Positions 30,380 through 64,000 are shown, counted from the first letter of the stretch. The stretch: 64,000 nucleotides of DNA from Candidatus Dojkabacteria bacterium HGW-Dojkabacteria-1 (GCA_002840365.1 PHAO01000001.1:524360-588359); one strand, 5' to 3'. The notes: generated from the letters alone by a model not told the origin. Numbers and translations are program-made.

Positions 30380-30849
30380 CTAATTGTAAACAACATATTA
30401 ATTCTCTCACTCAAGGAATTATCCTTGTTTGAGATGAGATCTACCTTTAGTATAACCCCAAGTATATCCTCTTTGCCTTGATATACAGGTTCTAGATAAA
30501 ACCTTGTAACAGAAATACTTGGAGGAGTAATTGCTACTCCATCATAATACAATCTTGAATTTATTAAGGAGTACTGCTTTGCTCCAACTTCTGATATTAA
30601 TTCTAATCTCCCATTATCATCTTCAAATACCGAATTCATATCATTCACTCTCAATGCAGAGTTAAAGCTCTCTTCAAAATGCTGAACAACTAAGGTAGAG
30701 GAGTGATGTAAATTGCTCTTACGAATATTCCTTAATGTACTTTCTTGAGCTGAGAGCATGAAGTTTAGAATCATGATTATTATGATTGCAAAAAGACCTA
30801 TGTATACTAGCGATTCTATTAAGGTTATTCCTTTTAATCTATTTTTCAT
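30376..30849 (-). CDS. Type IV pilin-like / pseudopilin
   Basis: The class III signal sequence is 'KGITLIESLVYIGLFAIIIIM' (G|ITLIE). Confidence 0.6.
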   Translation of the reverse strand: MKNRLKGITLIESLVYIGLFAIIIIMILNFMLSAQESTLRNIRKSNLHHSSTLVVQHFEESFNSALRVNDMNSVFEDDNGRLELISEVGAKQYSLINSRLYYDGVAITPPSISVTRFYLEPVYQGKEDILGVILKVDLISNKDNSLSERINMLFTIR

Positions 30850-46641: not shown

Positions 46642-46932
46642 ATGAAAGAATTACTAGTACACATCATTAAATCAATAGTTAACTATCCCGATGATGTTTC
46701 TGTAGAAGAGAGAGATAGTGTAGATTTTCCTGGATTAACAATTCTTACAATAGATGTGAACGAATCAGATAAAGGGGTAATAATTGGAAGAAAAGGAAGA
46801 ACTATCAATTCAATAAGAGATATAGTTACCATTAGTGCAATAAGAAATAACAAGAGAGTAAGAGTATTGCTAAAGGATGATAGGGGTGAACATCACTCTG
46901 AAGATGAGGATATGTTAAGAGACGAAATTTAA
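46642..46932 (+). CDS. KH-domain RNA-binding protein (UPF0109/YlqC-like)
   Basis: The KH GxxG motif is 'VIIGRKGRTINSIRDIV'. It is in the conserved position after rpsP. Confidence 0.7.
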   Translation: MKELLVHIIKSIVNYPDDVSVEERDSVDFPGLTILTIDVNESDKGVIIGRKGRTINSIRDIVTISAIRNNKRVRVLLKDDRGEHHSEDEDMLRDEI

Positions 46933-47630
46933 AGATTTTTAGCTTTTTCTTCAAATATATCCAGTATGTCTCGATAATCGGTATATGCCTTAAATGGTTT
47001 GTATATGTTTAAATTCCCTGTTCTATCTGCCATATAATAACCGCTTACTACTAATGATATTGTCCATTGTCCAGTAATAGATTGTGCTACTTCAACATTT
47101 TGTATTCTAATTATATATGGAGAAATACTTTGTACTTCATCAAGGAAGGAAACAACATTACTGTATTCCCCTTGATATGAAATAGGACCAGAGACTCCTG
47201 CTCCACTGTTTTCTGATGGAGAAATCCTTCCTCCCATATCTCCAGCCGAAAGCTCTCTAATGATTAAACTCTTCTCTTTGGCTAAATTATCTACATAGTA
47301 GATGAAATCAGATACCTTAAGTACTTTTGGTATTACACTCTTTGCAAGTACTATATCATCACTTAATTGATTCTCATCTAGTAGGGAAAGCTTTCTATCT
47401 AGTTCGTTTAATTGTTCTATCTTTTGATCTGTTTCTTTAATTTCCTCCTGATAATCTAGTGCTGCATTAACCATTGGAATAAAGACGAAAATTGAGAGTA
47501 GAAGAAGTATTACAGCAACAGAAATAGGTATTATCAAATCATTCAAATTCAATCGCGTTTTTTTCATCTTCTCACTTATTGCTGCAATTTCTTTACTTGT
47601 TTTTTGTGTATTGGTTGCTAATCTAGACAT
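46929..47630 (-). CDS. pilO: Type IV pilus assembly protein PilO-like
   Basis: The architecture is a short cytoplasmic tail, one TM 'LIIPISVAVILLLLSIFVFIPMV', a coiled coil and a periplasmic domain. It is third in the M-N-O order. Confidence 0.5.
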   Translation of the reverse strand: MSRLATNTQKTSKEIAAISEKMKKTRLNLNDLIIPISVAVILLLLSIFVFIPMVNAALDYQEEIKETDQKIEQLNELDRKLSLLDENQLSDDIVLAKSVIPKVLKVSDFIYYVDNLAKEKSLIIRELSAGDMGGRISPSENSGAGVSGPISYQGEYSNVVSFLDEVQSISPYIIRIQNVEVAQSITGQWTISLVVSGYYMADRTGNLNIYKPFKAYTDYRDILDIFEEKAKNL

Positions 47631-47632
47631 AT

Positions 47633-48286
47633 CTATTTATTAAAAAAATTTTTACCATTTAATTTCCCTTCAAAAGAAAAAGTTACCCTGTTATCACCTT
47701 TTCCAACAGATTGTAAATTAATTCTTTCAATATTTTCATCTGTTCCTAGTAAATACCATAACTTAGAAACCTGTTCTAAGCTTACTGAATATCCAGAATA
47801 TGTGAAATCTAGATTTTCAGATATCATTACACTTCTCATTTGTATATCACCAATCTTTGTACCCATTCTGCTCAAAAATTCAATTATCTCTTTGTGAGAG
47901 AAAGCACCATTTCTTACATTAGTATAGAGAACTGCCCTATCTACAATTTCATCATTTGATATTAAAGTATCTTCTTGTTGAGTTATCTTATTCTCTATCC
48001 TAAAAAGTTCTGCTTTTTTTACATTTAGGATCTGTCTAGAGATAATATTGAAACCAACAATTACCAAAATTACAACAACAAGGATAATTAGACTTACAAC
48101 AGAACCTATACTTACTCTGCTCTTTGTCTTCTCAACAACTTTTTCCTCTTCAGACATTGAAGGTATTAGATTGAACCCTTCACTTATATCAGGTTGTGGG
48201 GAGGGTGGTGGTGGAGGAGTAGTCGGAGTTGGTACTACTTTTACTTCCTCTTTTGCTACTTGTGGCTGTGTCGTTTCGTTATTCAT
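47633..48286 (-). CDS. pilN: Type IV pilus assembly protein PilN-like with a Pro-rich N-terminus
   Basis: A single TM 'VVSLIILVVVILVIVGFNII' is followed by a coiled coil. The gene lies between the pilM-like and pilO-like genes. Confidence 0.5.
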   Translation of the reverse strand: MNNETTQPQVAKEEVKVVPTPTTPPPPPSPQPDISEGFNLIPSMSEEEKVVEKTKSRVSIGSVVSLIILVVVILVIVGFNIISRQILNVKKAELFRIENKITQQEDTLISNDEIVDRAVLYTNVRNGAFSHKEIIEFLSRMGTKIGDIQMRSVMISENLDFTYSGYSVSLEQVSKLWYLLGTDENIERINLQSVGKGDNRVTFSFEGKLNGKNFFNK

Positions 48287-49307
48287 CTTTTAGTGCTAAA
48301 CCTATTGCAACAGAGTAGGATGGTCCTCCCTTGGCAATAATGTCTTTAAACTTATTATCAACAGTTATACCTGTCCAAGGATTAGCTATTTGTGCATTCA
48401 CACCTAAATATTTTGAGACAAACTCTCCCAAACCTGGGAGTAGAGCACCATCACCATTTAATAGGTAGTCTGATGGAGATGCACTTGCAGTTTTGTTTTT
48501 ATAAAACTCTATACCTCTTTGTACCTCCATTAATATAGATTCAACAATCGGAGAGAGAGCTCCATAAATTTTTCCTTCCAATACATTTGGTACTAGACCA
48601 TAGTTTCTCTTAAATTCTTCAGCACGACTATATTCAAAACTGAATTTGTTAACAATAGCCTGTGTTAGAGAGTCTGAACCAATGGCAATACTTTGTGAGA
48701 ATACAAGATATCCATTAGACATAATACTCATGTCTGTACTGTTTGCCCCAAAGTCTAACATAACTAAGTCTCTCTTTTGGGTAGCCTTAAACATTGCTCT
48801 TCCCATAGCGACTGACTCTGTTTCGATAGCTATTAAATCTAAATCTGCTAAGTTTGCTATTTCTGTATATATTGAAATAATCTTTTTTGGAGCAGCAACA
48901 AGTAATACTCTAGGTGCGTTCTTTTCTTCATTAAAGCCTATTGTAACAAAACTCATATGTACATCGTTAATAGACATAGGGATATACTGCTTTGCTTCAA
49001 AGAATACTGCATCTTTAAGTTCCTCTTTTTTTACTCCAGGGAATTCTAAGAATCTAGTGAAAACAGAAAACTCTGGTAGAGCCATCACAACATTCCTATT
49101 CTTTATCTTAGAATCATCGTAAAGTTTCTTTAGCACATCAGCAAGTTTCTTCTGATCTTGCTTTTCTTCACTATTAATTACTCCTTTAGGAGTAAGTTGG
49201 CTTCCTAAGTTGATTAATTCAGGAGTAGAGCTAACGTTTTTTAATTCAACAGCTTTTACTGAATGTGTACCGAAGTCTATTCCTACATGGTCAGGCAGTT
49301 TAGCCAT
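48279..49307 (-). CDS. pilM: Type IV pilus assembly ATPase-fold protein PilM (actin-like)
   Basis: The N-terminus 'VGIDFGTHSVKAVEL' is PilM/FtsA-like. The protein is 342 aa. It overlaps pilN by 8 nt. Confidence 0.7.
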   Translation of the reverse strand: MAKLPDHVGIDFGTHSVKAVELKNVSSTPELINLGSQLTPKGVINSEEKQDQKKLADVLKKLYDDSKIKNRNVVMALPEFSVFTRFLEFPGVKKEELKDAVFFEAKQYIPMSINDVHMSFVTIGFNEEKNAPRVLLVAAPKKIISIYTEIANLADLDLIAIETESVAMGRAMFKATQKRDLVMLDFGANSTDMSIMSNGYLVFSQSIAIGSDSLTQAIVNKFSFEYSRAEEFKRNYGLVPNVLEGKIYGALSPIVESILMEVQRGIEFYKNKTASASPSDYLLNGDGALLPGLGEFVSKYLGVNAQIANPWTGITVDNKFKDIIAKGGPSYSVAIGLALKDE

Positions 49308-49351
49308 ATTCTTTGGACGGTTAAATTATGACTACTTTATAATATCAGAAT

Positions 49352-52300
49352 CTAGTAAGGTTTGAAACCTAATTCTGTCTTTAGTATATCAACCTGACTT
49401 CCAAATACAAGATTACTTAGTACTGAATATTTGGAGTGGTATTTTACTACTAAAGCAGGATATATGTTTCTATCTACTAGTTTTAAGCTTCTGTTCATTT
49501 GTAAACCTCCAAGAGAGTGTAATCCTCCTTCTACAAAAAGTCCATCATACTTTGGAGAGAGACCCAGTTCTGGATCAATTGTAATATGGCCATCGGCTAA
49601 TATATATGATCTTACTTGATCATATTGTAATTGTCCTGCTGTGGATGCTTTTGCCCCTTCTTTTATGTTTACATTTCCACTTACTACAAATATACATGCA
49701 TCTTTGTTAGCATTCGATGTTCTAATTTCCCTATGTATTGTTAAATCACCATCTATGAAGAATACTCCCCAACCATCACATACAAAATTACTAATATTTC
49801 CTACTTGAAAATCCCCAGAATGCTTTAGAATACAGACGCTTGAGCTTAAATTGCAACCACCAATATTTCTTAAACTACCATTTAAGCTTGTTACTTGTGG
49901 AAGGGCCTTCGTCATATCCACTTTTCCTTCTATTTCCCTATCATTGTATGCTTTTCTTAGTTCTTCATACAGACTCTTAATATTAGTGTTCATACTAAAT
50001 GGACGCATATGGAAAGATTTGAGTAATACACTTGTATTAAGTGCAGAAGGGTTAGTTCCTCCAACGTTATCACCAAATACTTCAGTAGAGACATCCGCAT
50101 GCAATGGATTCATTCCTGCAAGAACAGGCACGGCATTCCATGCTGTAGGACTTCCAATTACTTTCATTTCATAGTCTCGACCATTGGAAGAGTAGGCTAA
50201 ACCTCCGTGTGTTATTATCCAATCCCCAAGAGAGAAGGTAAGACTTCTAATATGCATATTTCCCGCCTTATCAAAAACAGTTAAGTATACAATTAGGCTT
50301 CCTTCTTTGTTTTCTCCAATATTAATATCAACACTTCCACTATATGTTGTTCCACCAACATTTAATTTCCTAAATGCATATCCTGTGTTTAATTTTCCTA
50401 AATTAGTATCATCCGTTATTAAGTTGAAAGGTGAATTAATTTCTAACCCTGTACCTGTCATAGTGATTGCAGGTGGGTTAGGTGGCATTGTAATAGAGGC
50501 ATATATATTTCCTACAATAGCATATATTTCCTTTGTATCAGCGACAGTCCAACTAAGTCTTAGGTTTGTATCCCCAATTACAGTCATATTAAGAGTTCCT
50601 ACTTCTGGCAATCCTTTATCTATAGTCCATGGATATCCTGTTGTAGCCCACTGCCTTGCATACAGCTGAGCAACTGTAGGAGTAGTTCTGTATCTTAATT
50701 GACCTGGTGACCAGTAATCACCAATTTTAGAGTTAATATCTGGATATGCAGTATAGTTGTCATATGGTGTAAAACTAAATATGTCATTACCCATGAGGAA
50801 AGTGTTGTATGTTACCTGTGCTACATTCTCATAACCACTTGCGAAGTTGAAACTTAACTGGAATGGCATTACGACATTATTTCCCGACCTAGTAATACTT
50901 GCTTGTAGGTTATGCCCTATGGTTACTCTAACCATTTGTAAGCCTCCAGGACCAGAAATTACAAATGAATTACTTGAAAATACTGCTCTTACCCATTTTG
51001 CCGTTGCTCCTGTATAGCTTGGTACATATGGTCTCCATGCAGAGCTTTCCCATCTCATCATAAAGCCCCAGCTATTAGCACTTGGTGCTTGAGGAGGTTG
51101 AGAAGGATTGGTTGCAGTATCTATCCATAGGGGAGTTGCAACCTCTCCAGTAAGAGTATTTTCTCTAAACCATACAGAGACAGCTTCAATATCTGTTGCA
51201 CCATTTACGTCAGTATATGTTGCAGTCATACGAATTGGATCGTTTAAGTTGTAAAGCGTAGTTCTAGTACCTGAGTGCGTACTACTAGAGAATCCATATG
51301 TATTTTCTGCATCAGGATGTACCTGCAAGCTTGTTGTTGGCTGTGGACTGATAGGTTCATAACAGGAACGATAGTTGGGAGGACCACCACAAGGTGATGT
51401 TCTTGTACATGAAGTAAAGTTTGAAAGTATCATATTAGGATTACCCGGTGAAGTTGCAGTAAGTGGAGATGGACAGCTTGGAGGAGTACAGTTAGAACAT
51501 CTATCTACATAACAGGTTCTCGTTCCTGTAACACCACACGCATTATTACATGCTAAGGTAACCGAACCAAATCCGTAATTTGTATCACTGTATGTAGGTG
51601 TACAGCTTGGTACACAAGGATTTGCACAGTAACAAGTCCTACTTTCAGAGCCACACTGTGAAGGGCTATTGCTACATGTATATACCTGTGTTCCGTATCC
51701 TGTTGGAGTACTAGTATATGTCGGACCTACACAAGCAGTCGGAGTACAAAGAGGAGTACAGTGATCTTGGTAGAAGACACATGGTACTTCAGGCAAAGAC
51801 CATGGACGATCATTTAAGGCATAGTACGCATTTATCTGCAAACTTTTTACTCTTTGGCCTCCCCAGTTTGCATCATTTACAAAGATAGTATTTGCTGGGA
51901 AAGTAGTAGTATCTGTAGTCCTAGTTGTAGCATATGTATTTACTCTTACAAGTTGATATGAACCACTCGGACATGTTCCTTGGTTTGTTGCCCATCCTGC
52001 GATATACAGTGTTGAACAAACAATAGCATTTCCGTTATCCCTATTATAAAAGTTATATGCAAATTGATTTACTGGAGTATTAGAAGTAGATGTAATGGTT
52101 GCAGACTCTCCACTCTTCAGATATCTTTTAGAGGTAGTAGCACTTGAACAGTAATTTTGTCTTTGATAGTAACAGGTAAGATAGTTATGGCTTGGGCTAC
52201 ACCCATCTCCTCTGTAACAACTAGCAGTTGTTGAATATCCAGTATTGGGAGATGTTGCAGTACCAGAAGGACATGTAGGAGTACAATCATTACATGATGG

Positions 52301-52633
52301 TGGAGGAGGAGTAGTTTCTCTTTGACAACATCCGTGATTTATACGTAAACGGGTCCCATCACAGTTAAAACCTGACCAGGTATTAACATAGTCTTCCCTA
52401 CAGTTATTGTTCTGACCATTACATGAATATCCGCTTAACCATCTACAGGTACCATTACTTCCAGTAGTACCTCTTTCAGAAGGAGAAAAATTTACATTAT
52501 TATTACTACAGTAGTATCCTGATGCACAAATTATTGCATTAACATCTTCTTTCCCATAATCAAGAAAAAATAGACTTAAAAAAGGTGTTAACAGAAGAAA
52601 GAAAAGTTTTAAATATTTAAAATTTTTACTCAC
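49352..52633 (-). CDS. Giant secreted Cys-rich protein (1093 aa), paralog of 53671..55962. It may be a pilus-associated adhesin or tip protein.
   Basis: It has a signal peptide. The N-terminal 400 aa are Cys-, Thr-, Ser- and Pro-rich. The central and C-terminal 600 aa are shared with the paralog ('PIRMTATYTDVNGATDIEAV', 'DACIFVVSGNVNIK', C-terminal '...ELGFKPY'). Confidence 0.5.
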   Translation of the reverse strand: MSKNFKYLKLFFLLLTPFLSLFFLDYGKEDVNAIICASGYYCSNNNVNFSPSERGTTGSNGTCRWLSGYSCNGQNNNCREDYVNTWSGFNCDGTRLRINHGCCQRETTPPPPSCNDCTPTCPSGTATSPNTGYSTTASCYRGDGCSPSHNYLTCYYQRQNYCSSATTSKRYLKSGESATITSTSNTPVNQFAYNFYNRDNGNAIVCSTLYIAGWATNQGTCPSGSYQLVRVNTYATTRTTDTTTFPANTIFVNDANWGGQRVKSLQINAYYALNDRPWSLPEVPCVFYQDHCTPLCTPTACVGPTYTSTPTGYGTQVYTCSNSPSQCGSESRTCYCANPCVPSCTPTYSDTNYGFGSVTLACNNACGVTGTRTCYVDRCSNCTPPSCPSPLTATSPGNPNMILSNFTSCTRTSPCGGPPNYRSCYEPISPQPTTSLQVHPDAENTYGFSSSTHSGTRTTLYNLNDPIRMTATYTDVNGATDIEAVSVWFRENTLTGEVATPLWIDTATNPSQPPQAPSANSWGFMMRWESSAWRPYVPSYTGATAKWVRAVFSSNSFVISGPGGLQMVRVTIGHNLQASITRSGNNVVMPFQLSFNFASGYENVAQVTYNTFLMGNDIFSFTPYDNYTAYPDINSKIGDYWSPGQLRYRTTPTVAQLYARQWATTGYPWTIDKGLPEVGTLNMTVIGDTNLRLSWTVADTKEIYAIVGNIYASITMPPNPPAITMTGTGLEINSPFNLITDDTNLGKLNTGYAFRKLNVGGTTYSGSVDINIGENKEGSLIVYLTVFDKAGNMHIRSLTFSLGDWIITHGGLAYSSNGRDYEMKVIGSPTAWNAVPVLAGMNPLHADVSTEVFGDNVGGTNPSALNTSVLLKSFHMRPFSMNTNIKSLYEELRKAYNDREIEGKVDMTKALPQVTSLNGSLRNIGGCNLSSSVCILKHSGDFQVGNISNFVCDGWGVFFIDGDLTIHREIRTSNANKDACIFVVSGNVNIKEGAKASTAGQLQYDQVRSYILADGHITIDPELGLSPKYDGLFVEGGLHSLGGLQMNRSLKLVDRNIYPALVVKYHSKYSVLSNLVFGSQVDILKTELGFKPY

Positions 52634-53658
52634 GGTCTTAACATCAAAAATGCAAATATTAGTTTATCAAAATTAACAACACCATCTTCTGAGCTTTTTC
52701 TTACATCTTCAATATATTTATCTATATCTTTTACTTTAAATTCACTGATATTTCTAGTTTCAGCTATTGTACACAGTGCTATAGAATCGAAATCTGTTTC
52801 CTCTTTACTACAATATTCTAAAATATCAGCATTTGTAATATTGCTTTTTTCATCTAAATAAAAGAACATTACCTGTGTAATGCCATCCATGTCATAATCT
52901 TTAAAGTTCGATAAAGAAAGTTCCCTTGTACTCCTATCCATTTCTTTTTCATAAGATAATTTTTGTGCAGAAAGAGTAGTTAAAAATTCCTCTCTATTTA
53001 TGTTAAGTTTAAGATCAAATACCATTTCAGACTCTTCAATCTTTGCATCCATAATCTCGCCTAAGTAAAAGAATACTCTTTTAACTGTTTTTCCATCAGC
53101 AATAATTAAATCATTTGCAGGATAATATCCTGCTTTTTTCACTTCCTCTAGAGCGTTTCTCCTTATGTTCATTTGAGGAGCACCATTAGGATATACCTTA
53201 TCTAATAGTTCAAATATTTCTTCATCCATAAGTAGGCTTAATTCAAATTTTTGAAGGTTATATTCACCAAACAGGATTCTTGTATAATAAAAGTTCAATT
53301 CTATGGGTACCATTTGCTCTGTAATCATTTCCTCCCTATCAAACTCTACAACTCCTTTTTCTTCACAAATAGTAATTGGTTGTAATTTGTAATCTTTATC
53401 AACTAAAGCCATGAAAAAACATTCTGTATTCTCCTCTCTCTCCTCATATCTTTCTAAAAGCGCACTACATTTGAAAGAGATTTTCCCAAATGAATTTGTT
53501 TGTTCACAATTTTCTGCAATATCTTGGAATTTATTCAAAGAGAAAGAACCATTAACTTGGTTATATCTTTCAGAAAAGAAAAATACTGAAAAAACAATTA
53601 CTAGTAGTAATATTATTCCAGGAACTATTAAATTACTCTTCTTTATTTTAATTTTCAT
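52630..53658 (-). CDS. Hypothetical membrane-anchored protein (342 aa)
   Basis: An N-terminal TM 'LIVPGIILLLVIVFSVFFF' is present. It overlaps the downstream giant gene by 4 nt. Confidence 0.4.
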   Translation of the reverse strand: MKIKIKKSNLIVPGIILLLVIVFSVFFFSERYNQVNGSFSLNKFQDIAENCEQTNSFGKISFKCSALLERYEEREENTECFFMALVDKDYKLQPITICEEKGVVEFDREEMITEQMVPIELNFYYTRILFGEYNLQKFELSLLMDEEIFELLDKVYPNGAPQMNIRRNALEEVKKAGYYPANDLIIADGKTVKRVFFYLGEIMDAKIEESEMVFDLKLNINREEFLTTLSAQKLSYEKEMDRSTRELSLSNFKDYDMDGITQVMFFYLDEKSNITNADILEYCSKEETDFDSIALCTIAETRNISEFKVKDIDKYIEDVRKSSEDGVVNFDKLIFAFLMLRP

Positions 53659-53670
53659 TCTTTTTAGTTA

Positions 53671-55962: not shown

Positions 55963-57619
55963 TCGAGAACTTCTTTAGTAAATTTATAAAGTGGTAGGAA
56001 TCAGATATATTTGCAGAATGAGTTGTATATTCTTCCTGTGTATCAATGATTGTAAAATATCCATATTCACTTAGCTTTTGTAAAGACTTTGGATTGTTGT
56101 TACTAAATGGTGAGAATCTCCAATTTTCATAGGTTACAATTTTACTGGAACCAGGACTCTCAAAGTAATGCCTATAAAAGATATCTGCCAAAAGATTTTT
56201 TGCTTCATTAGTTCTGTACCCAAGAAGAGATTCTGCACATATGAGTTTCTCAGCCATAGTTACTTCACAATATGGATTTGATGGGTCTGTATCACATATG
56301 CTAGGTATTTTTTGAATTTCAGGATAAAGAAGCTCCATGTCTGATAGAAGAGAATCATTTGGATATTCAGAATATATATCCTTGGCAGATCTCATTTGAT
56401 AGCACTGAGGTAATATTCCACCTTTTTCTGCAAGAATTACCTTTCCTTTTTGGTAATAAGAGAGGATTTCTGTATCCGTAAATCTTGTATCGTTTGATTC
56501 CATTAAATCCGCAATTTTGTTAAATTCAATCATTTCTGATGATATCCCAAAAAGATACCCCCTTAATATGGAGTTTTTTGTGTATCCTGAAAAGGTGTTA
56601 GCAGTAGAATCATATTTCTGTATACCCTTATTTAATGTTTGTTTACAATATTCATAGGCATGATTTTTTACACTAATACATTCGTTTGTATTACACTCTT
56701 TGAGATTTGATATTGTATATGAAGCGACTTTACAATTCTGAAAATATGCTTCTCCATAGTTGTCACCAGAGATATAGTTTGAAATATTTCCAATATACTC
56801 AGGGATATCTATTACCTGAGAATCATAAATTGCAGAAACTCCAGAGAGTAGAGTAAATACCACTGGAAGATTCATTTGTGATTCTTGAGCATTGGTAACA
56901 AAGTTTGATGCAAAGCTAAATGTTCCATCACTTCTTGATATTTGACCTGAGATGAATCTAAAGCTTGTTGGATTGAAGTATCCAAAATCATCCGTCATAA
57001 AGAAGTAGGTTAATTTGTTAATCAATTCTTCTTTATCAAAGCCTTCAAAATATTCAACTTTCTCAGATACTTCCGTAGATGGAATTTCCATTGTCCAAAG
57101 ATATACATTCCTGTTTACTTCACAATTTCCTCTACCACATGATAAATCTAACTTAAACATATCTGAATATATCTTCTTTACTGTACATACAGAATATTCG
57201 GTAAAATACCTTATATTCTGAGGTATATTGTATTCAAGTTTTAATATTGCAGAAGTGCCACTTTCGATTTCGTTAAGGGCAACTCTTCCTTCATACTTAC
57301 CCTTAGGTAAAGAGTATTCGAAAGAATCTGTATTACCACTTACAGAAAAAGCTGGGAATAGAGTCATTACCATTGAATCTCCTGTCTCACGTATATTTTC
57401 AACCCTAATGGGGAAGGAGTATATTATCTTGTTACCATCTCTTTCAGGAAAATCATTTCTAACATTGTTTGCTAAAATATCCTCTTCTAGATTAACAAAC
57501 ATTGTCAAATGACTCCCATTTGATGTTTTCATAAGGTAGAAGGTGTATGACAAAAAGCCGATAAAGAATACAAGTATTACAATTGGTATAGTTATCAATA
57601 TTTTCTTTAAGGCAGTCAT
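55955..57619 (-). CDS. Hypothetical membrane-anchored extracellular protein (554 aa)
   Basis: An N-terminal TM 'ILITIPIVILVFFIGFLSYTFYL' is present. It overlaps the downstream gene by 8 nt. Confidence 0.4.
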   Translation of the reverse strand: MTALKKILITIPIVILVFFIGFLSYTFYLMKTSNGSHLTMFVNLEEDILANNVRNDFPERDGNKIIYSFPIRVENIRETGDSMVMTLFPAFSVSGNTDSFEYSLPKGKYEGRVALNEIESGTSAILKLEYNIPQNIRYFTEYSVCTVKKIYSDMFKLDLSCGRGNCEVNRNVYLWTMEIPSTEVSEKVEYFEGFDKEELINKLTYFFMTDDFGYFNPTSFRFISGQISRSDGTFSFASNFVTNAQESQMNLPVVFTLLSGVSAIYDSQVIDIPEYIGNISNYISGDNYGEAYFQNCKVASYTISNLKECNTNECISVKNHAYEYCKQTLNKGIQKYDSTANTFSGYTKNSILRGYLFGISSEMIEFNKIADLMESNDTRFTDTEILSYYQKGKVILAEKGGILPQCYQMRSAKDIYSEYPNDSLLSDMELLYPEIQKIPSICDTDPSNPYCEVTMAEKLICAESLLGYRTNEAKNLLADIFYRHYFESPGSSKIVTYENWRFSPFSNNNPKSLQKLSEYGYFTIIDTQEEYTTHSANISDSYHFINLLKKFSNE

Positions 57620-57649
57620 TTAAATATTCTGTTTGAAGTTACTGTTTTC

Positions 57650-58036
57650 TTAACCTAGGAATTTATCTAATTCCTTCATTAATCCCTCATAGTCTAGGTC
57701 TGTCTTTACAAGATATGAGGATGCTCCAATGTTAAAGGCTTCTTTTACTACTGATTCACTGGTCATATTGGTAAGAATAATGATTGGCATTGTACCGTAT
57801 TTTTCTTCATTCCCTTTAACTGTTTTTAGCACTTCCAAACCATCTACTCCTGGCATCATAAGGTCGAGTAGAACAAGATCTATCTGTCCTACGTTATTAG
57901 CCAATATATCCAATCCTTGATATCCATCAAGCGCTTTTAATGGTGTAAAACCAGCTGCTTGTACCAACTCTGCATATGAATCTAGTAAGGGAGCCTCATC
58001 CTCAACTATTAAAATCTTTCTAACTTGATCAGCCAT
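57650..58036 (-). CDS. Single-domain response regulator (CheY-like receiver), similar to PilH/PilG
   Basis: The receiver motifs are 'KILIVEDEAPLL', 'DLVLLDLMMPGVDG', 'IIILTNMTSES' and '...SSYLVK'. The gene is embedded in the pilus locus. Confidence 0.8.
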   Translation of the reverse strand: MADQVRKILIVEDEAPLLDSYAELVQAAGFTPLKALDGYQGLDILANNVGQIDLVLLDLMMPGVDGLEVLKTVKGNEEKYGTMPIIILTNMTSESVVKEAFNIGASSYLVKTDLDYEGLMKELDKFLG

Positions 58037-58053
58037 TTCTATATTTATTTAAA

Positions 58054-59031
58054 TTAATTATTTGGTCTTAGTGTACCTATATTGTAAATAGTATAGTCGA
58101 AAAGAGATGAGTATCCAAGGCTATCTACACCTGGAACCATAATTTGTTTCTCTCTAAAGGAACCATAACAGTTAACTGCGGCATTCACTTTCATATATGT
58201 AAATTTCTTTGCTGAACAAATAGGATTTGTTGGGAAGCTATGTGCAACACCTAATGTAAGATTTAATGGAATTATCCTTATTTGATACAAAGGATATCCA
58301 CCCCTAGATCTATTAAGATTAATTGTTAATTTTTTCCCCGCTTCAAGTCCATTAAAAGAACCTATTGGTGCAGCAATACCAGTTAGATCGCCAGCACTAC
58401 AGGAATCCCCATTTGGTTTAAAACAGTACGCCTTTATATCGTCTGTTGTTCCGTCATTTTGATATTCTGCAATTTCATCACTGCTATTTCCATATATTTC
58501 CTTTATTGCAAATATTGTTGGTGCATTATCCCTTGCTTCGAATTGTAAAACCATATTACATGGGTTTACAGTATATGAATTATCTTTTAAATTGAACACT
58601 CTCGTTGATCCTACTCTTACATCTACAAAATCAGTTGGTTCAGCTTCTGCTATTGTTAATTTCAAATTTGAACTTGGGTTGTTCTCAATATGATACTGAC
58701 ACCAATTTTGTTGTTCTAAAATACTAGAATCGACTCCATATTCATCTAATATTGATTTAATATCTGCAATACTTGTGTATTCTTTTGTTCCCTCTTGTTG
58801 AACTTTTACCGATAAATCTTGAAGGAATTGAAACTCTGCTCTGACAAACAAGTCTAGTAGACTATCTGCTTGCTCAATTGCCATCATAGAATCTTTGGTA
58901 TTTATAGCAGCTTCTTTGTTTTTTAATGTTCTTGAATACAAAGATGCCCCCAGTACAGTAGCTACAACAAGTATAACCATAATAATAGCGATAGCTTGTG
59001 CAGGATACATTCTTTTAAAACTATTTCCCAT
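58054..59031 (-). CDS. Hypothetical membrane-anchored protein, possibly an atypical minor pilin
   Basis: The N-terminus 'RMYPAQAIAIIMVILVVATVLGA' is hydrophobic but lacks the G-F-x-x-x-E prepilin signature. Confidence 0.3.
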   Translation of the reverse strand: MGNSFKRMYPAQAIAIIMVILVVATVLGASLYSRTLKNKEAAINTKDSMMAIEQADSLLDLFVRAEFQFLQDLSVKVQQEGTKEYTSIADIKSILDEYGVDSSILEQQNWCQYHIENNPSSNLKLTIAEAEPTDFVDVRVGSTRVFNLKDNSYTVNPCNMVLQFEARDNAPTIFAIKEIYGNSSDEIAEYQNDGTTDDIKAYCFKPNGDSCSAGDLTGIAAPIGSFNGLEAGKKLTINLNRSRGGYPLYQIRIIPLNLTLGVAHSFPTNPICSAKKFTYMKVNAAVNCYGSFREKQIMVPGVDSLGYSSLFDYTIYNIGTLRPNN

Positions 59032-59051
59032 ATATAAAAATTAACAATTAA

Positions 59052-59750
59052 CTAATACCAAGTCAAACCCTGCGATGAAACAGTAATTTGCCTTGTTATT
59101 TCTTTATTAACAGGGACACTAAACCCTGTAGGCCAATTTACGGGTGTAACGACAGAATTGATTATAAACATGTTGTCAGCGTCATCTCCAACAACTAGAT
59201 ACTCTACACTGAAATCCACAACATTGACTGTATAACTGTGTAGTACTGCTACATATGAATTTGCTCTTTCTGAGTTAAAACATTCATAAGGGTCACTCAT
59301 ATTGTAATTTGTTGTTTTCAATAGGTATCCAATCGTTGGATCATCTTTGTCTTTAAAAAAACCTATACAACTCCAAACATTGTAGCCATATGATCTAACA
59401 TGCATTTCATTTGCTGGAGTACCAATTAAGAGAGTAGGGTTATCATATACATTTCCTACACTTTGTATATCCTCGACTTTCATTGTTTCCTTATTGAACG
59501 CTCTTACTGTATTTGAATTGTATAAGGTTATATCACCGACATTAGAATTTCCAAGAGATCTGTTCATGAGTTCCATCATGAAGTTAACATCATTTCTTGC
59601 TTGATTTTTGTTATTTGCAACAAGAGATACTTTTATCAATGTTGTTAATGTTGTAGCAACAAGTAAGGTAATAATTCCTAAGATTGCTATTGTTAGCAAC
59701 ATCTCAACCAAGCTAAATCCTTCGTATTTTTTATTTTTTGTAAGAATCAT
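59052..59750 (-). CDS. Type IV pilin-like protein
   Basis: The N-terminus is 'YEGFSLVEMLLTIAILGIITLLV' (G|FSLVE). Confidence 0.6.
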   Translation of the reverse strand: MILTKNKKYEGFSLVEMLLTIAILGIITLLVATTLTTLIKVSLVANNKNQARNDVNFMMELMNRSLGNSNVGDITLYNSNTVRAFNKETMKVEDIQSVGNVYDNPTLLIGTPANEMHVRSYGYNVWSCIGFFKDKDDPTIGYLLKTTNYNMSDPYECFNSERANSYVAVLHSYTVNVVDFSVEYLVVGDDADNMFIINSVVTPVNWPTGFSVPVNKEITRQITVSSQGLTWY

Positions 59751-60292
59751 AGATTTATTATCGCAAAGTATTGATAGTCCCTAATATCAGTAGTAGTACT
59801 AAACATTCCTTCTACTTTGTTGAATCCTACTATAACTTTTATTAACATTTTTTTGGTCCCACTCGGTTGGTTAGAAGCTATACAGATTATCCTAAAGTAA
59901 TCTTCTTCGTTATCATTAACACCATCATCAATTACCGCATCTACTTTGTATGTCTCTCTTTCACCAATTTGATATGATTGAGTTTTATCTATTTCATAGT
60001 TATCCTCTGATTTTCTTAATATGTAGCATCTATCTTTTTGAAGCTGAGTCGGTGCAAAATACTCACTATCTTCCTTTAGCCTTTCTCTATTTGCAATATT
60101 CTGAACAATTACTGCAGCAGATCTTGCTTGATGAGCCTGTGCGTCTTCAATATCTAGTCTTACTAATTCTCTCATAGCTACAACTGAGATATTAATTAGT
60201 ACTGTAGCAACGATACCGGAAACCATAATGGCGATTAGCGCTTCTACAAATCCTAAAGCTTCATATTTTGTATTTAGTTCTACTTTTTTCAT
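59747..60292 (-). CDS. Type IV pilin-like protein with an atypical cleavage region
   Basis: The N-terminus is 'KYEALGFVEALIAIMVSGIVATVLI'. Glu is at +5 if cleavage follows the Ala. The gene overlaps its neighbours by 4 nt. Confidence 0.45.
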   Translation of the reverse strand: MKKVELNTKYEALGFVEALIAIMVSGIVATVLINISVVAMRELVRLDIEDAQAHQARSAAVIVQNIANRERLKEDSEYFAPTQLQKDRCYILRKSEDNYEIDKTQSYQIGERETYKVDAVIDDGVNDNEEDYFRIICIASNQPSGTKKMLIKVIVGFNKVEGMFSTTTDIRDYQYFAIINL

Positions 60293-61029
60293 CTTTCTTC
60301 AATATCATGAGATACTGCACCAGAGAGAGGATATACTTTAATTACATCCGCTATCATTCCTCTATTTCTTAATATTTCTACTGCAAATAGCTTGTTGGGT
60401 ATATATACACCGTTTGGACTATAGCTAACAGGCATACCATCACTATCATACAGAAAGACTCTACCAGTTACTGTTTCAAAAACTATATATGAAGCATCTC
60501 CGATAAGGGCGATATTAAATCCTGCATGTATTTTACCCTCTTCTATACCTGGCATAATCGTTAGGTATGAAGAGATTGGAATATCAGGAAATCCAGCATT
60601 TCTATTACAAAGACTACTTGGCTCCCACTCATCTAGTGGTAATTTGGCATTGGGTCCATATGGAGTAGGGACTCCGATAATCTGTCCTGAGTCATATGCA
60701 AGGATTTCAGATCTTGTCCTTATATCCCCATATGCTGTAAATGGAGAACACCATTTAAAGAAAGTGTATTTGCCATCAGAGATTTCTGTAAAATCAATAC
60801 CTATACCATATATCCATCCTTCACCATCTCTCTTTTCTAAAAGCATTGCCTTTTGTTGTACCAATTGTAAATCCTGCTTTATTTCTTCAATGTTCTGTTT
60901 TACTAGAACAGAATCCCTCAATCCACTAAAGGAATATGCACCAATACCTCCTAATATGATTACTATCATGAGAACAACCAAGACCTCGGCGAGAGTATAG
61001 CCTTGATACTGGGCAGACTTTTTTCTCAT
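60289..61029 (-). CDS. Type IV pilin-like protein
   Basis: The N-terminus is 'YQGYTLAEVLVVLMIVIILGGIGA' (G|YTLAE). Confidence 0.6.
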   Translation of the reverse strand: MRKKSAQYQGYTLAEVLVVLMIVIILGGIGAYSFSGLRDSVLVKQNIEEIKQDLQLVQQKAMLLEKRDGEGWIYGIGIDFTEISDGKYTFFKWCSPFTAYGDIRTRSEILAYDSGQIIGVPTPYGPNAKLPLDEWEPSSLCNRNAGFPDIPISSYLTIMPGIEEGKIHAGFNIALIGDASYIVFETVTGRVFLYDSDGMPVSYSPNGVYIPNKLFAVEILRNRGMIADVIKVYPLSGAVSHDIEER

Positions 61030-61076
61030 CTTATACTGTTTATAACTAAGTTACATACAGATTAACAAAAAATGTG

Positions 61077-61646
61077 TTACTTGTTAACAGCAAAACCTCT
61101 CTTTAAATACCAGTCAGAAGCATCAAAGCCCCTGATTATATTAACATCGGCAACATCCCCACTGTTTACTGATCCAACATACTTTTTCTTTATCGGATTT
61201 CCTACAGGTTGATTACCAATTCCATCACCAGTACAGTAGTGTCCTTTATTATTCTCATCATCTATACCACCCAAAGATACACATACAACAACAAATTGAG
61301 CGGAGATTGGTTCTACATAGTAATAGTAGGTCGCGTCTGTACCACCATCGAATACATCTTTTTCAAAATACCCTTTTATGGCTGGAATTGTTCCTTTGAA
61401 TCCCAAGGCTTCTGCAAAAAATTGTTCCTGAATACAGCCCGAACAACTCCCCATTCTTGGGTATTCCTTATTATCCAACTTGTATTTGACTAGTGCATTG
61501 TATAGCTGTTCTGCTGCATCTTGATGTTGTATTCTATCTGCCCTCTCTAATGCATATCTTCCAACAGCAATCCCTATTGCCATGAGAATAATTAAGATCC
61601 CCATTACAATCAATACTTCAATCAATGTAAAACCTTTGTATCTCAT
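61077..61646 (-). CDS. Type IV pilin (189 aa), paralog of 62481..63050
   Basis: The N-terminus is 'YKGFTLIEVLIVMGILIILMAIGIA' (G|FTLIE). It shares the block 'GGTDATYYYYVEP...VVVCVSLGG' with the paralog. Confidence 0.7.
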   Translation of the reverse strand: MRYKGFTLIEVLIVMGILIILMAIGIAVGRYALERADRIQHQDAAEQLYNALVKYKLDNKEYPRMGSCSGCIQEQFFAEALGFKGTIPAIKGYFEKDVFDGGTDATYYYYVEPISAQFVVVCVSLGGIDDENNKGHYCTGDGIGNQPVGNPIKKKYVGSVNSGDVADVNIIRGFDASDWYLKRGFAVNK

Positions 61647-62407
61647 ATAAATAGAATTTTTTCTAAGATAAGGAATAATTGCTCTTTAAATATTAACACT
61701 AATGAGAAGGAAATGAACATAAGGGGAAGTAGGGGTATAGAGGTTCTTATAGTGGCTTTCTTAAGAGCTATTAAAATTAAAGAATATATTAGAGCTATAA
61801 ATAGGAATACATACAAGAAGGAAAGGTAGAAGGGTAGAGAAAGTAAAAAGCCAAGAGAAAACATTACAAGAAGATCTCCTAAGCCAAATTTTTTCTTAAG
61901 AGTCTTACTCAGGAGAAAAACAAAAGATGCAAAAATTGTTGCAAATATAATTGAATTCTCCTGTATTTCTTTATAAACAACTGTATATATTACAAAAGAT
62001 ACAAAAGAGTATAGTAGGAATATATGTACAATATCTTTTGGAATTCCTTTGTATATCCTGTCAAAATATGACATAGAAAAGAAAAATAGTATCAATATGT
62101 AGAAGGTAATAGGAAGAGAGAAATAGTAAATTGAAGCGATAGATAGTCCTAGGAAAAATTCTGTAATAGGGTAATAAAGTGGTACTTTGTAACCACATTG
62201 GGTGCATTTTGCCTTAAATATGAAAAAGGAGAGTATTGGTATTAGTTCATACCAATGTAGCTGTTTATTACATTTTTCACAATGAGAACCCTTTAAAAAT
62301 ATCTCTGGATATTTATATCCGTTATCTATTCTATATAGTAGGGCATTCAAAAAACTCGCTACTGCTAATCCAAGAAAAAATATTACAACTGTTATATATA
62401 AATGCAT
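61643..62407 (-). CDS. pilD: Type IV prepilin peptidase with an N-terminal zinc-binding domain
   Basis: The N-domain is 'SFLNALLYRI...SHCEKCNKQLHWYELIPILSF..KCTQCGYKV'. The C-terminus is polytopic and carries 'GLGD'. Confidence 0.65.
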   Translation of the reverse strand: MHLYITVVIFFLGLAVASFLNALLYRIDNGYKYPEIFLKGSHCEKCNKQLHWYELIPILSFFIFKAKCTQCGYKVPLYYPITEFFLGLSIASIYYFSLPITFYILILFFFSMSYFDRIYKGIPKDIVHIFLLYSFVSFVIYTVVYKEIQENSIIFATIFASFVFLLSKTLKKKFGLGDLLVMFSLGFLLSLPFYLSFLYVFLFIALIYSLILIALKKATIRTSIPLLPLMFISFSLVLIFKEQLFLILEKILFI

Positions 62408-62480
62408 ACTCCATTATATATATAACTCTCTAAAAGAAAACCCCCTCAAAGGAGGGGGTTAAGATTACTAAGAAATCAGC

Positions 62481-63050
62481 TTAGGATGGTGCGCTCCATG
62501 ATTTTGAGCTACCTACCCAGTTTTGAGTAAGTGACCAACTTCCCACAGCTCCTGGATTGTCATGATTCAAGGTAGTACTATTTTCAACATCTTTTGTTGT
62601 GATGGAACCTGGTCCTGAAGCAGCTAATCCAAATGCATTTCCTGTACAGTAGAAGCCTCTTCTAGTCGCATCAGCATGTCCACCTTTTGATACACAAATC
62701 ATTACTTCCTGTTGCCTATTAGGTTCTACATAGTAATAGAAGGTTGCATCTGTTCCACCAGTAAATTCACCGTCTCCCATATATGTATTTATACAGTTAA
62801 GGGATGGTCCTGGAGTACAGTTTCTTGCCATCGAGTCACCAAAGCTTGCAATAGTAGGGAACTCTCTATTATCTGTATAGTATGCTTGGAGTGCAGTATA
62901 TATCTGGTCCGCAGCATTTTGATGTGCTACATCATTAGCTCTATTGATAGCAAATCTACCTGCAGTAATACCTACAGCCATAAGGATTATAAGGATACCC
63001 ATGACGATAAGCATTTCTACGAGTGTAAATGCTGAATATTTTCTATCCAT
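62481..63050 (-). CDS. Type IV pilin (189 aa), paralog of 61077..61646
   Basis: The N-terminus is 'KYSAFTLVEMLIVMGILIILMAVGI' (A|FTLVE). It shares the block 'GGTDATFYYYVEP..VMICVSKGG' with the paralog. Confidence 0.7.
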   Translation of the reverse strand: MDRKYSAFTLVEMLIVMGILIILMAVGITAGRFAINRANDVAHQNAADQIYTALQAYYTDNREFPTIASFGDSMARNCTPGPSLNCINTYMGDGEFTGGTDATFYYYVEPNRQQEVMICVSKGGHADATRRGFYCTGNAFGLAASGPGSITTKDVENSTTLNHDNPGAVGSWSLTQNWVGSSKSWSAPS

Positions 63051-63109
63051 ATTAGGTTAAAAAGTATAAATAATTTATATAAATTAAATGTAATTTATCT
63101 AAATAAAAA

Positions 63110-64000
63110 TTACACAATGGTTGTAACAATGTCAACAACCATTGTCATAACATCTGACAATTGGAACATAGGCATATATACTGCGAGAGCTATAAATGCG
63201 ATAACTAGTCCCATTACTATAAGAAATACTGGTTCTAATGTAGTAGACATATTTGATGTTGCAACATCTACTTCATCTTTGTAATATTCTGCTACTTTGT
63301 TTAATACATTGTCTAACTCTCCTGTTTCTTCTCCTACTGCAATCATGCTACTTACAATTAATGGAAAGTACTCACTTCTTGCAACTGGTATCGCAAGGGA
63401 GCCTCCTTTCTCTACATCATTTCTAGATTCTAGTACTACTTCTTTAAACATTTGATTGCTTAAAGATTGGGCTGTTAATTCTAGCGCTCTAATAATTGAC
63501 AGACCACTACTTAGAAGTAGGGCAAGTATTCTTGTAAATTGTGCTAATTGCATCTTTGTAACAATATTTCCTACAATCGGTAGCTTAAGCATTACTTTGT
63601 CTTTGTTTCTTTTACCTGTTGGTGTATCAAAGTATGCTTTACCACCGAAGATAAGGATTGCAATAATTAGTAGTAATGCCCACCAATATGCAAGCGTGAA
63701 GTTACTAAGATTTATAAGAAATGTTGTTACCCAAGGAAGATCTGCTCCGAATTCAGAATATATTTCTGCCATTGATGGTACAAGAACAAACATGAGTAAT
63801 GCTACAACTGCAACAATAACTACTAAGATAATAACTGGGTATATTAGGGCTCCCCTAAGTTTGTCATTCAATTTTTTACTCTCTTCTAATTCCACTGCTA
63901 ATTTTGTAAGAATTATATCTAAATTACCACTAGATTCTCCCGCTTCAATAAGGTTTAAAGTAATGTCATCAAAGACTTCACCTGCTTGTCTGAAAGAATC
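63110..64000 (-). CDS. pilC: Type IV pilus / T2SS platform protein (GspF/PilC family). It is 5'-truncated by the window edge. The tracker's Met at 63895 is a GTG inside an open frame.
   Basis: The frame stays open up to position 64000. The upstream translation '...FRQAGEVFDDITLNLIEAGESSGNLDIILTKLAVELEESKK' is a GspF signature. Downstream the protein has 3 TM and 'AVGEETGELDNVLNKVAEYY'. Confidence 0.75.
   Translation of the reverse strand, partial: DSFRQAGEVFDDITLNLIEAGESSGNLDIILTKLAVELEESKKLNDKLRGALIYPVIILVVIVAVVALLMFVLVPSMAEIYSEFGADLPWVTTFLINLSNFTLAYWWALLLIIAILIFGGKAYFDTPTGKRNKDKVMLKLPIVGNIVTKMQLAQFTRILALLLSSGLSIIRALELTAQSLSNQMFKEVVLESRNDVEKGGSLAIPVARSEYFPLIVSSMIAVGEETGELDNVLNKVAEYYKDEVDVATSNMSTTLEPVFLIVMGLVIAFIALAVYMPMFQLSDVMTMVVDIVTTIV

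Follow-up and report, generated by a model that had tools for sequence, protein, structure and literature searches.

What can a type IV pilus carry at its tip, and how might such a tip change its target? One described answer is PilY1/PilC (PF05567; Pseudomonas, Neisseria, Myxococcus), a non-pilin adhesin associated with the tips of type IVa pili. It is a large Sec-type protein whose gene directly follows those of the four core minor pilins; its C-terminus is conserved, its N-terminus is variable, and genomes have several paralogues of it. The model for Myxococcus rests the conserved C-terminus on the minor-pilin complex and puts the variable N-terminus at the extreme tip, and multiple paralogues are thought to yield tips of differing specificity (PMC7541494). 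In this paper, we consider two large proteins, which we call A (763 amino acids) and B (1093 amino acids), encoded inside a type IV pilus locus of Candidatus Dojkabacteria bacterium HGW-Dojkabacteria-1, which is uncultured and ultrasmall, in a stretch of 64,000 nucleotides (GCA_002840365.1, PHAO01000001.1:524360-588359) that we refer to as the window and whose first letter is position 1 in what follows. We give about even chances to the reading that they are Sec-exported, non-pilin tip adhesins, functional analogues rather than homologues of PilY1, with exchangeable cassettes made up of an N-terminal head and an upstream partner.

Streptococcus sanguinis PilC, a pilin, carries a lectin module. 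PilB of the same organism is a pilin fused to a VWA module, and these monoderm pili owe their adhesive specificity to grafted binding modules of the same kinds as those of the Dojkabacteria family (PMC8179133); they do so on true pilins processed by PilD, whereas the Dojkabacteria modules sit on a carrier that is not a pilin. Thermus thermophilus ComZ (PDB 6QVI) ties a large triangular beta-solenoid of the ice-binding protein (IBP) type to a type IV pilus; the closest relative of that solenoid is the same ice-binding protein that our own structural comparisons return, and a position at the pilus tip has been argued on steric grounds (PMC6561018). ComZ is, however, itself pilin-like, with the solenoid inserted in the pilin fold, and it binds DNA; A and B have ordinary signal peptides and no pilin domain. 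The nearest studied case, PilX2 (and PilX1), comes from the same superphylum, in Saccharibacteria, where a type IV pilus, together with a single large protein associated with it, drives host binding and competition; PilX2 is that large protein, is needed for host binding and has been proposed to be a PilY1-like adhesin (PMC12206443). PilX2 has a non-canonical signal and a large C-terminal domain, and it differs from A and B in being pilin-like, in having a beta-propeller as that domain and in having no cassette partner described; the named members of the A/B family in our searches are, moreover, all Dojkabacteria or WS6. Our literature search found no paper that describes proteins of the A/B type or links Dojkabacteria pili to such genes.

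The locus runs from 46929 to the end of the window as one minus-strand, operon-like array, with intergenic gaps of 0-73 nucleotides and many stop/start overlaps, in the order pilC, a 189-amino acid pilin, pilD, a second 189-amino acid pilin, four minor-pilin-like genes, a CheY-like receiver, a 554-amino acid accessory protein (hyp554), A, a 342-amino acid accessory protein (hyp342), B, pilM, pilN and pilO. A platform protein, a prepilin peptidase, PilM and pilins with class III signals are thus encoded together, as in a type IV pilus system. An earlier account of this window, made from its letters alone and called here the sequence-only reading, had listed the same array, and its coordinates and lengths (763, 1093, 554 and 342 amino acids) agree with ours; Pfam supports pilC, pilD, pilM, CheY and the N_methyl motif in four of the pilin-like genes. 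As for the source, protein A is 100% identical to an HGW-Dojkabacteria-1 protein, and the GC content is about 33%.

How widespread are these large proteins? A word-indexed search returned 35 relatives, all named ones from Dojkabacteria, and an exhaustive profile search of a representative library clustered at 50% identity returned 672 clusters at E ≤1e-3 (230 of them at E ≤1e-30), with lengths from about 750 to 1558 amino acids; the distant relatives among the matches listed (the best 150 of the 672) match over some 420 C-terminal profile positions. The named records of a second profile search were again from Dojkabacteria/WS6 only. A genome scan, which took one genome per species and used a narrower alignment as its seed (the broad 104-sequence alignment being too divergent), found 29 loci, all from Dojkabacteria/WS6 or from generically labelled metagenome-assembled genomes (MAGs). 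Records labelled "uncultured Candidatus Saccharibacteria" probably carry generic labels, because synteny holds for their loci and identity reaches 94%.

All of the roughly 35 Dojkabacteria pilus loci examined have the family in the same position, down to 28-31% identity; absence from the pilus loci of relatives, which the sequence-only reading had named as a mark against itself, was not found. Where loci are long enough, the consensus order is pilB, pilT, pilC, pilin, pilD, in some cases a further pilin, four minor pilins, CheY and then the large-protein block, which consists of a large protein and, as optional members, an accessory gene before it, a second accessory gene and a second large protein; pilM, pilN, pilO and genes for a KH-domain protein, S16 and RNase III follow. 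The set of four minor pilins is kept in all loci examined. Copies of the large protein number one to three per locus: one in the loci L003, L029, L030 and L035, two in most, and three in L004 (4849-16600 of the MAG contig CAZULJ010000005.1), where three accessory and large-protein pairs (342+796, 555+761 and 344+1086 amino acids) stand in a row between CheY and pilM, so that the cassette unit can evidently duplicate in tandem. The most divergent locus, L003 (13485-15819), has Fic-domain and histidyl-tRNA synthetase genes between its single large protein and pilM, and the large protein still adjoins the minor-pilin block. Separately, the large-protein genes of L017, L027 and L031 are broken into many short open reading frames (ORFs), being pseudogenes or else the result of assembly and frameshift errors in the MAGs, and L021 contains a masked run, read as X.

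Such a fixed position invites the thought that the large proteins are part of the machine itself, that is, an extracytoplasmic structure, whether a collar or a conduit, that crosses the wall or S-layer, or else a stop for retraction, in place of PilP, PilQ or TsaP. The conserved core does lie beside pilMNO (L003 excepted), no secretin-like component turned up in the locus when the window proteins and the orthologous locus were searched by family, and PilY1 itself also serves as a machine plug (PMC7541494). We nonetheless consider a structural role quite improbable: the copy number varies, L003 has its gene split from pilM and not from the minor pilins, and the hypervariable lectin- and VWA-bearing N-termini and strain-level cassette swaps described below would be atypical of a scaffold.

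The two proteins share one plan. Protein A (53671..55962, minus strand) has a signal peptide (1-30), a "CC-CC-CC" head (about 31-75), a Cys module (86-131), a core and a tail (753-763). Protein B (49352..52633, minus strand, with a GTG start) has a signal peptide, a "CSGTD-type" head (34-104), a Pro linker and Cys modules at 113-155, 288-335, about 336-375 and 379-425, with a beta-rich insert at about 160-285; its residues 426-1093 are the same core and tail as those of A. The Cys module, of about 45 residues, thus occurs four times in B and once in A. Identity between A and B is 38% over about 680 residues (E 3e-157), which makes the shared core considerably longer than the roughly 450 residues first claimed for it. 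The claim that the N-terminal regions are Cys-rich and unique fares unevenly: they contain 9-14% Cys vs 0.6% in the cores, and what had passed for a unique stretch in B is a head followed by four modules of which A has a copy. Both N-termini are of the secreted type, as the sequence-only reading had it, being ordinary signal peptides (MNKGSIYFKILVFSLITVFSVVFFAKNVEA/W) without G-F-x-x-x-E, and both proteins have the ...GFKP[YF] ending that it pointed out (...VEVGFKPF in A, ...TELGFKPY in B). An N_methyl match, or a class III signal with Glu5, is absent from both.

Searches of Pfam, NCBIfam and PDB sequences (phmmer) gave zero matches to A or B, and therewith no homology to enzymes, glycosidases or S-layer proteins, a possibility that had been raised at the outset. 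For the fold, we have relied on prediction. AlphaFold, given the whole of protein A with 34 homologues (mean pLDDT 82.5, pTM 0.69), leaves the Cys-rich segment 25-82 disordered, forms a small disulphide module at about 86-131, and builds the core from two Ig-like sandwiches (about 138-312 and about 345-490) and a beta-solenoid domain (491-752), with no pilin-like domain; the last 180 or so residues of the C-terminal domain are a beta-helix with a flanking helix, and the 11-residue tail is of low confidence. The sequence-only reading had proposed testing the shared core for a beta-helix; the model has one in those last residues only and makes the rest Ig-like. The C-terminal domain modelled alone (residues 480-763, 94 sequences) reached a pLDDT of 92.6 and a pTM of 0.89, and the C-terminal part is, on this prediction, a triangular beta-solenoid with a flexible invariant tail, KxEVGFKP[YF].

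Against the PDB, the Foldseek matches of the whole protein A were weak and generic to tandem-Ig proteins (MSCRAMM, Als, AgI/II, integrin legs; template modelling [TM] score ≤0.37), cell-wall adhesins and one S-layer protein among them, and against viral structures they were generic FN3/Ig proteins only. These tandem Ig/FN3 matches were rejected as homology, being generic and of low TM score. A further difference from MSCRAMM proteins is that A and B have neither an LPXTG sortase signal nor a hydrophobic segment. The isolated C-terminal domain gave as its best matches DUF3494-type ice-binding beta-solenoids (E 0.02-0.8, TM up to 0.47), and DUF7305 has sub-threshold sequence matches to the solenoid (E 0.028 for protein B and 7e-4). 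What the model would have in common with the DUF3494/IBP-1 fold is a right-handed triangular solenoid with a flanking helix; set against it are the lack of a match to the Pfam ice-binding family, where the isolated C-terminal domains found nothing even at E ≤5, the modest TM score and a pilus operon context with no link to ice. Thermus ComZ stands lower in the same list (E 0.8, TM 0.21), a weak resemblance that may be taken as a lead and not as homology.

The comparison with PilY1 can now be stated in full. A and B share its place after the minor pilins, its polarity of conservation and its multiplicity, and some Dojkabacteria members have a VWA domain, as PilY1 does. They have no sequence similarity to PilY1 (Pfam, NCBIfam), and where PilY1 has a seven-bladed beta-propeller, A and B are predicted to have a C-terminal beta-solenoid after their Ig-like sandwiches. 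The setting differs as well, for Dojkabacteria are, like other bacteria of the Candidate Phyla Radiation (CPR), generally thought to lack an outer membrane. We know of no description of exchangeable cassettes of head and upstream partner for PilY1.

What, then, do the large proteins vary, and what do they keep? In 34 members, the core, counted from the Cys module through to the C-terminus, has a constant length of about 650-680 amino acids, and the region N-terminal to it ranges from 109 to 540 amino acids, with 11-53 Cys; conservation peaks in the tail K-x-E-V-G-[FY]-K-P-[YF], with a mean identity of 77%. The N-terminal modules found among 41 long members include Laminin_G_3, Pentaxin, VWA, F5/8 type C, DUF2341, Gly_rich_2, the Listeria-Bacteroides repeat and Ig_Rha78A_N. 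The core being constant, the N-termini variable in length and content and furnished with lectin- and VWA-type modules, and the genes following directly on a minor-pilin set of the H-I-J-K kind, we favour an adhesin at the tip. The sequence-only reading had offered pilus-associated cargo, tip proteins or adhesins; its direction is supported in part, by the constant core, the variable modules and the adjacency to the minor pilins, and a physical association with the pilus is what we infer from them. One group of members, of 1285-1558 amino acids (L026:4400-14900; P0051, P0052, P0059, P0063), departs from the plan at the other end, where the profile match stops at about 740 of 809 positions and more sequence lies beyond; the tail may be displaced, or one sub-lineage may have C-terminal extensions.

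Should a protein of this kind stay on the pilus at all? The soluble colonisation factors TcpF and CofJ bind through a flexible N-terminal segment. Both are secreted cargo of type IVb pili (PMC6048534, PMC9565799), and one might imagine that A and B are likewise pushed out or released by the pilus, their tail acting as a signal recognised by the minor pilin at the tip; in favour are a tail that is flexible and conserved while the rest of the protein is folded, and genes that lie inside the pilus operon. It seems to us unlikely. If there is no outer membrane, a Sec-exported soluble protein needs no pilus to make its exit, and a long stalk with distal binding modules would suit a tethered adhesin better. 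The docking step would in any case be the same as for the tip adhesin that we favour, and the two differ only in whether the protein remains attached.

Close relatives offer another line of support. With blastn, we compared the source locus with L033 (89-92% DNA identity), L034 (80-83%) and L008/L018 (87-94%), and found the loci collinear except for exactly two blocks, without detectable DNA similarity, that lie within DNA that is 80-94% identical. The first block, variable cassette 1 (55592..57660, minus strand, from the blastn breakpoints), consists of the hyp554 gene and codons 1-124 of protein A, with one border inside the final codons of CheY. In L033 and L018, whose flanks are 87-92% identical, nothing similar in DNA is found, and the site is occupied by a 341-amino acid gene of the hyp342 type and a different head. 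The second, variable cassette 2 (about 52297..53657, minus strand, likewise from the blastn breakpoints), begins just past the stop of protein A, comprises the hyp342 gene and the first 100-112 or so codons of protein B, and has no DNA similarity to L033, L034 or L008; vs L008, the block reaches 51600, or about 345 codons of protein B. The borders are, in other words, the start of the accessory gene and the end of the head/Cys region. Downstream of the breakpoint, identity rises to 80-100% (profile per 50 columns). The accessory alleles that replace those of the source are only 18-23% identical to them, and they keep the anchor and five invariant Cys, and nearly keep a sixth.

How did such different alleles come to lie in nearly identical loci? 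The cassette 2 allele of the source recurs in several other samples at 86-98% DNA identity, accessory and head together, and the alleles therefore form discrete classes. Within an allele class, the ratio of nonsynonymous to synonymous substitution (Nei-Gojobori dN/dS) is 0.02-0.21 for all parts, values that are rough with dS near saturation; the 30-codon anchor segment falls outside this range and is too short to interpret. Positive selection, or fast diversification by point mutation, finds no support in these ratios. Because they are so low, the diversity is, as far as the sequences can tell, an exchange of alleles that are old, deeply divergent and kept under purifying selection rather than the product of rapid point mutation. 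The earlier proposal of a diversifying surface-interaction module is supported by this sharp replacement of head and accessory between near-identical strains, by way of allele exchange. A related observation concerns Logan contigs of 2.0-2.6 kb (L038-L042), in which several independent assemblies break at nearly the same two points, one where protein A ends and the other within the N-terminal region of B; strain heterogeneity at cassette borders would produce shared breakpoints of this kind.

The accessory proteins are the other half of each cassette. Hyp554 (55955..57619, minus strand) has an N-terminal anchor (hydrophobic residues 1-31), a conserved domain of about 150 amino acids and an extension of about 370, the last confined to long forms in the family alignment. 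Hyp342 (52630..53658, minus strand) has an N-terminal anchor and an ectodomain of about 300 amino acids; the members of its family alignment are 18-30% identical to the protein of the source genome, with Cys51, 64, 80, 283 and 296 invariant and Cys98 nearly so. Both proteins are thus membrane-anchored at the N-terminus, as the sequence-only reading had said of them. Its idea of a paired duplication, that is, of a duplicated pair of genes, does not survive: neither family has a match in Pfam or the PDB, and we found no homology between the two (hhalign probability 37%), so that the accessory genes belong to unrelated families. The hyp554 stop overlaps the start of protein A by 8 nucleotides, the hyp342 stop overlaps that of protein B by 4, and overlaps of 4 or 8 nucleotides recur in relatives, which suggests, from gene arrangement, that accessory and large protein are translationally coupled.

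Accessory type predicts head type across loci. Downstream of a hyp342-type gene, the head is of the "Y-x-C...YC...C-S-G-T-D-x-x-C...GCC" (CSGTD) type in 10 of the 11 cases scored, and in more by eye; downstream of a long hyp554, it is of the "W-x-G-CC...GCC...CC" (CCx3) type in all seven cases, plus one truncated case. Short forms of hyp554 (about 180 amino acids) precede other head types in seven of eight cases, the exception being the truncated long-form case. Where no accessory was called upstream, a CSGTD or CCx3 head was found in 1 of 13, and that one (L008) has a hyp342-type gene that the script had missed. Since A-type and B-type cores alike carry the hyp342/CSGTD pair, the pair has moved between carriers as a unit. 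The logic has a parallel in the cassettes of phage receptor-binding proteins and their assembly chaperones, in which the distal binding domain and a small neighbouring gene vary in step and pass together between genomes that are otherwise alike. The likeness is one of logic only: there is no homology, and the Dojkabacteria partner is membrane-anchored and encoded upstream of a variable end that is N-terminal.

Partners that are membrane-anchored raise the question of whether the pilus is needed, for the large proteins could be adhesins or envelope proteins of the cell surface, co-regulated with the pilus and never mounted on it, held by the accessory or by the cell wall. The accessories are indeed anchored and paired with heads and could serve as the anchor, the Ig-like matches include cell-wall adhesins and an S-layer protein, and work on Saccharibacteria proposes that further adhesins, of short range, come into play once tethering by the pilus has taken place (PMC12206443). 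Anchoring by the head, however, the most variable and most distal part, would leave the invariant C-terminus and its tail without a role; many copies have no accessory; A and B contain no LPXTG, lipobox, S-layer-homology domain, C-terminal anchor or hydrophobic end segment; and throughout the class the large proteins are strictly linked to the minor-pilin block. We would put this explanation level with release from the pilus, as an improbable one.

Could the head have evolved to bind its own partner? A head and an accessory of the same allele might bind each other, between cells or in cis, the pilus presenting a polymorphic ligand and the accessory on cells of the same allele serving as its cognate receptor; the outcome would be recognition of kin or self mediated by the pilus (for aggregation or DNA exchange), self-protection, or a cis-acting mask against binding the cell's own surface. 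The logic would be analogous to that of the Ids and TraA/B systems and of toxin-immunity cassettes, and to our knowledge no polymorphic recognition system on a type IV pilus has been described. It would fit that inheritance and swapping always keep the two genes together, in discrete allele classes, that both products are predicted to be extracytoplasmic and are Cys-rich, and that purifying selection acts on both inside each allele class. Yet no toxin, peptidase or nuclease domain was found in the 41 large members or in either accessory family, the layout (variable part N-terminal, partner upstream) is unlike that of known polymorphic toxins, in which a variable C-terminal toxin domain has its immunity gene downstream, and a chaperone or co-adhesin explains the co-variation more simply. 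We regard such a recognition pair, and the kin recognition or masking that it would bring, as a long shot, on a par with a structural machine part. A polymorphic toxin, or contact-dependent inhibition (CDI)-type cassette, as the main explanation was rejected on the same two counts, together with the membrane anchor of the partner.

How might a tip adhesin of the kind that we favour work? The large proteins would be exported by Sec, and the solenoid and the tail KxEVGFKP[YF] would dock on the priming complex, made up of the four minor pilins, and end with it at the pilus tip. The two Ig-like domains would form a stalk, and the Cys-rich N-terminal modules and the head would point away from the fibre and bind a target, be it a host cell, a surface or a glycan; the pair of head and partner is thus a plausible module of host or surface recognition. 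Each head would work with its specific membrane-anchored partner, encoded directly upstream and translationally coupled. That partner would most probably be a folding or holding factor for the disulphide-rich head, which would be useful in a cell with no outer membrane, where an exported protein could diffuse off before it is loaded, or else a co-receptor subunit; a mask against self-binding would fit the data too. Recombination would swap the cassette of head and partner between strains and between A- and B-type cores and, in doing so, change the binding specificity with the pilus-docking core untouched. What is new here is a putative modular adhesin, which we take to be pilus-associated, on an unrelated carrier fold, with an organisation of head and partner in cassettes that we have not found described.

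Three points weigh against this. About one-third of the large proteins lack an accessory upstream, these being typically the second where two copies adjoin, and a partner is therefore not required in general. Because the loci are related by descent, the counts of association between heads and partners overstate the number of independent events. A conserved position would by itself also be compatible with a part of the machine or with a surface protein under shared regulation.

The rest of the array is that of an ordinary pilus system, with some non-canonical members. The platform protein gene pilC (63110..64000, minus strand; T2SSF 3.8e-33 in Pfam) is cut by the end of the window; its complete orthologues, in L001, L002, L033 and L034, have 413 amino acids and come after pilB and pilT, which lie directly upstream of pilC in orthologous loci and in the source contig would fall past 64000. 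The first 189-amino acid pilin (62481..63050, minus strand; N_methyl 3.4e-6, N-terminus SA/FTLVEML) is probably the major pilin. Terminator-like hairpins are common 3' of major pilin genes, and because a strong one (62439-62460, minus strand; a 9-bp stem with six GC pairs of the AACCCCCTCC...GGAGGGGGTT type, followed by a T-run) lies between this gene and pilD, the arrangement suggests a highly expressed major pilin with partial read-through into the remaining operon. The prepilin peptidase gene pilD (61643..62407, minus strand) encodes an N-terminal CxxC...CxxC zinc-finger domain (A24_N_bact 3.5e-23; CEKC...CTQC and GLGD present), its Peptidase_A24 match of 5e-4 being under the cutoff. The second 189-amino acid pilin (61077..61646, minus strand; N_methyl 1.2e-6, KG/FTLIEVL) is a paralogue of the first. 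At this place, between pilD and the minor pilins, the distant relative L035 (3510-4298) has a Sulfotransfer_1 gene instead, whose product may modify pilins or glycans.

The four minor-pilin-like genes (58054..61029, minus strand; N_methyl, N-terminal helices) encode products of 246, 181, 232 and 325 amino acids. By weak NCBIfam matches to ComGD, GspH, ComGF and GspJ, the 246-amino acid product is GspH/ComGD-like and the 232-amino acid one is GspJ/ComGF-like. The labels given earlier hold less well for the other two, the 181-amino acid product being non-canonical with Glu at +3 and the 325-amino acid one, in the GspK/PilX position, having no G/FxxxE motif (no Glu5) and only a hydrophobic N-terminal helix; its family profile had no meaningful match among PDB sequences. 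PilM (48279..49307, minus strand) is clear (PilM_2 4.3e-52). PilN and PilO, also named by the sequence-only reading, are candidates: PilN (47633..48286, minus strand) by position, bitopic topology and a Pro-rich cytoplasmic N-terminus with an invariant G-x-N-L-x-P motif across loci, which resembles the PilM-binding INLLP peptide of other systems, and PilO (46929..47630, minus strand) by position, bitopic topology, a coiled-coil-like segment and a weak GspM match (E 0.005). Neither candidate has Pfam support, and the profiles of both found no meaningful match among PDB sequences.

The CheY-like receiver (57650..58036, minus strand; a single domain of 128 amino acids, Response_reg 5.2e-20) keeps its position in all loci, at 62-95% identity across them. 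A 739-amino acid histidine kinase (HisKA and HATPase_c; 38347-40566, plus strand), about 17 kb from this orphan receiver of the operon, is possibly its cognate kinase. The remainder of the window is housekeeping (PBP1, MutS, PPDK-like, PheT, ThrRS, ClpB), and its sole large unannotated ORF, of 634 amino acids with a TTG start (30839-32743, minus strand), has no Pfam match at E ≤1e-5.

How do CPR/Patescibacteria find and hold their hosts? Saccharibacteria are the only lineage studied, and the locus described here offers a concrete candidate for the determinant of specificity in a second, uncultured CPR lineage. If the large proteins are what we take them to be, then the function of tip adhesin would have two or more evolutionary origins on type IV pili, in folds that are unrelated; the cassette of head and partner would be a marker of host range or strain identity in metagenomes; and the C-terminal tail would be a testable docking signal for the loading of non-pilin proteins onto pili in cells that have no outer membrane.

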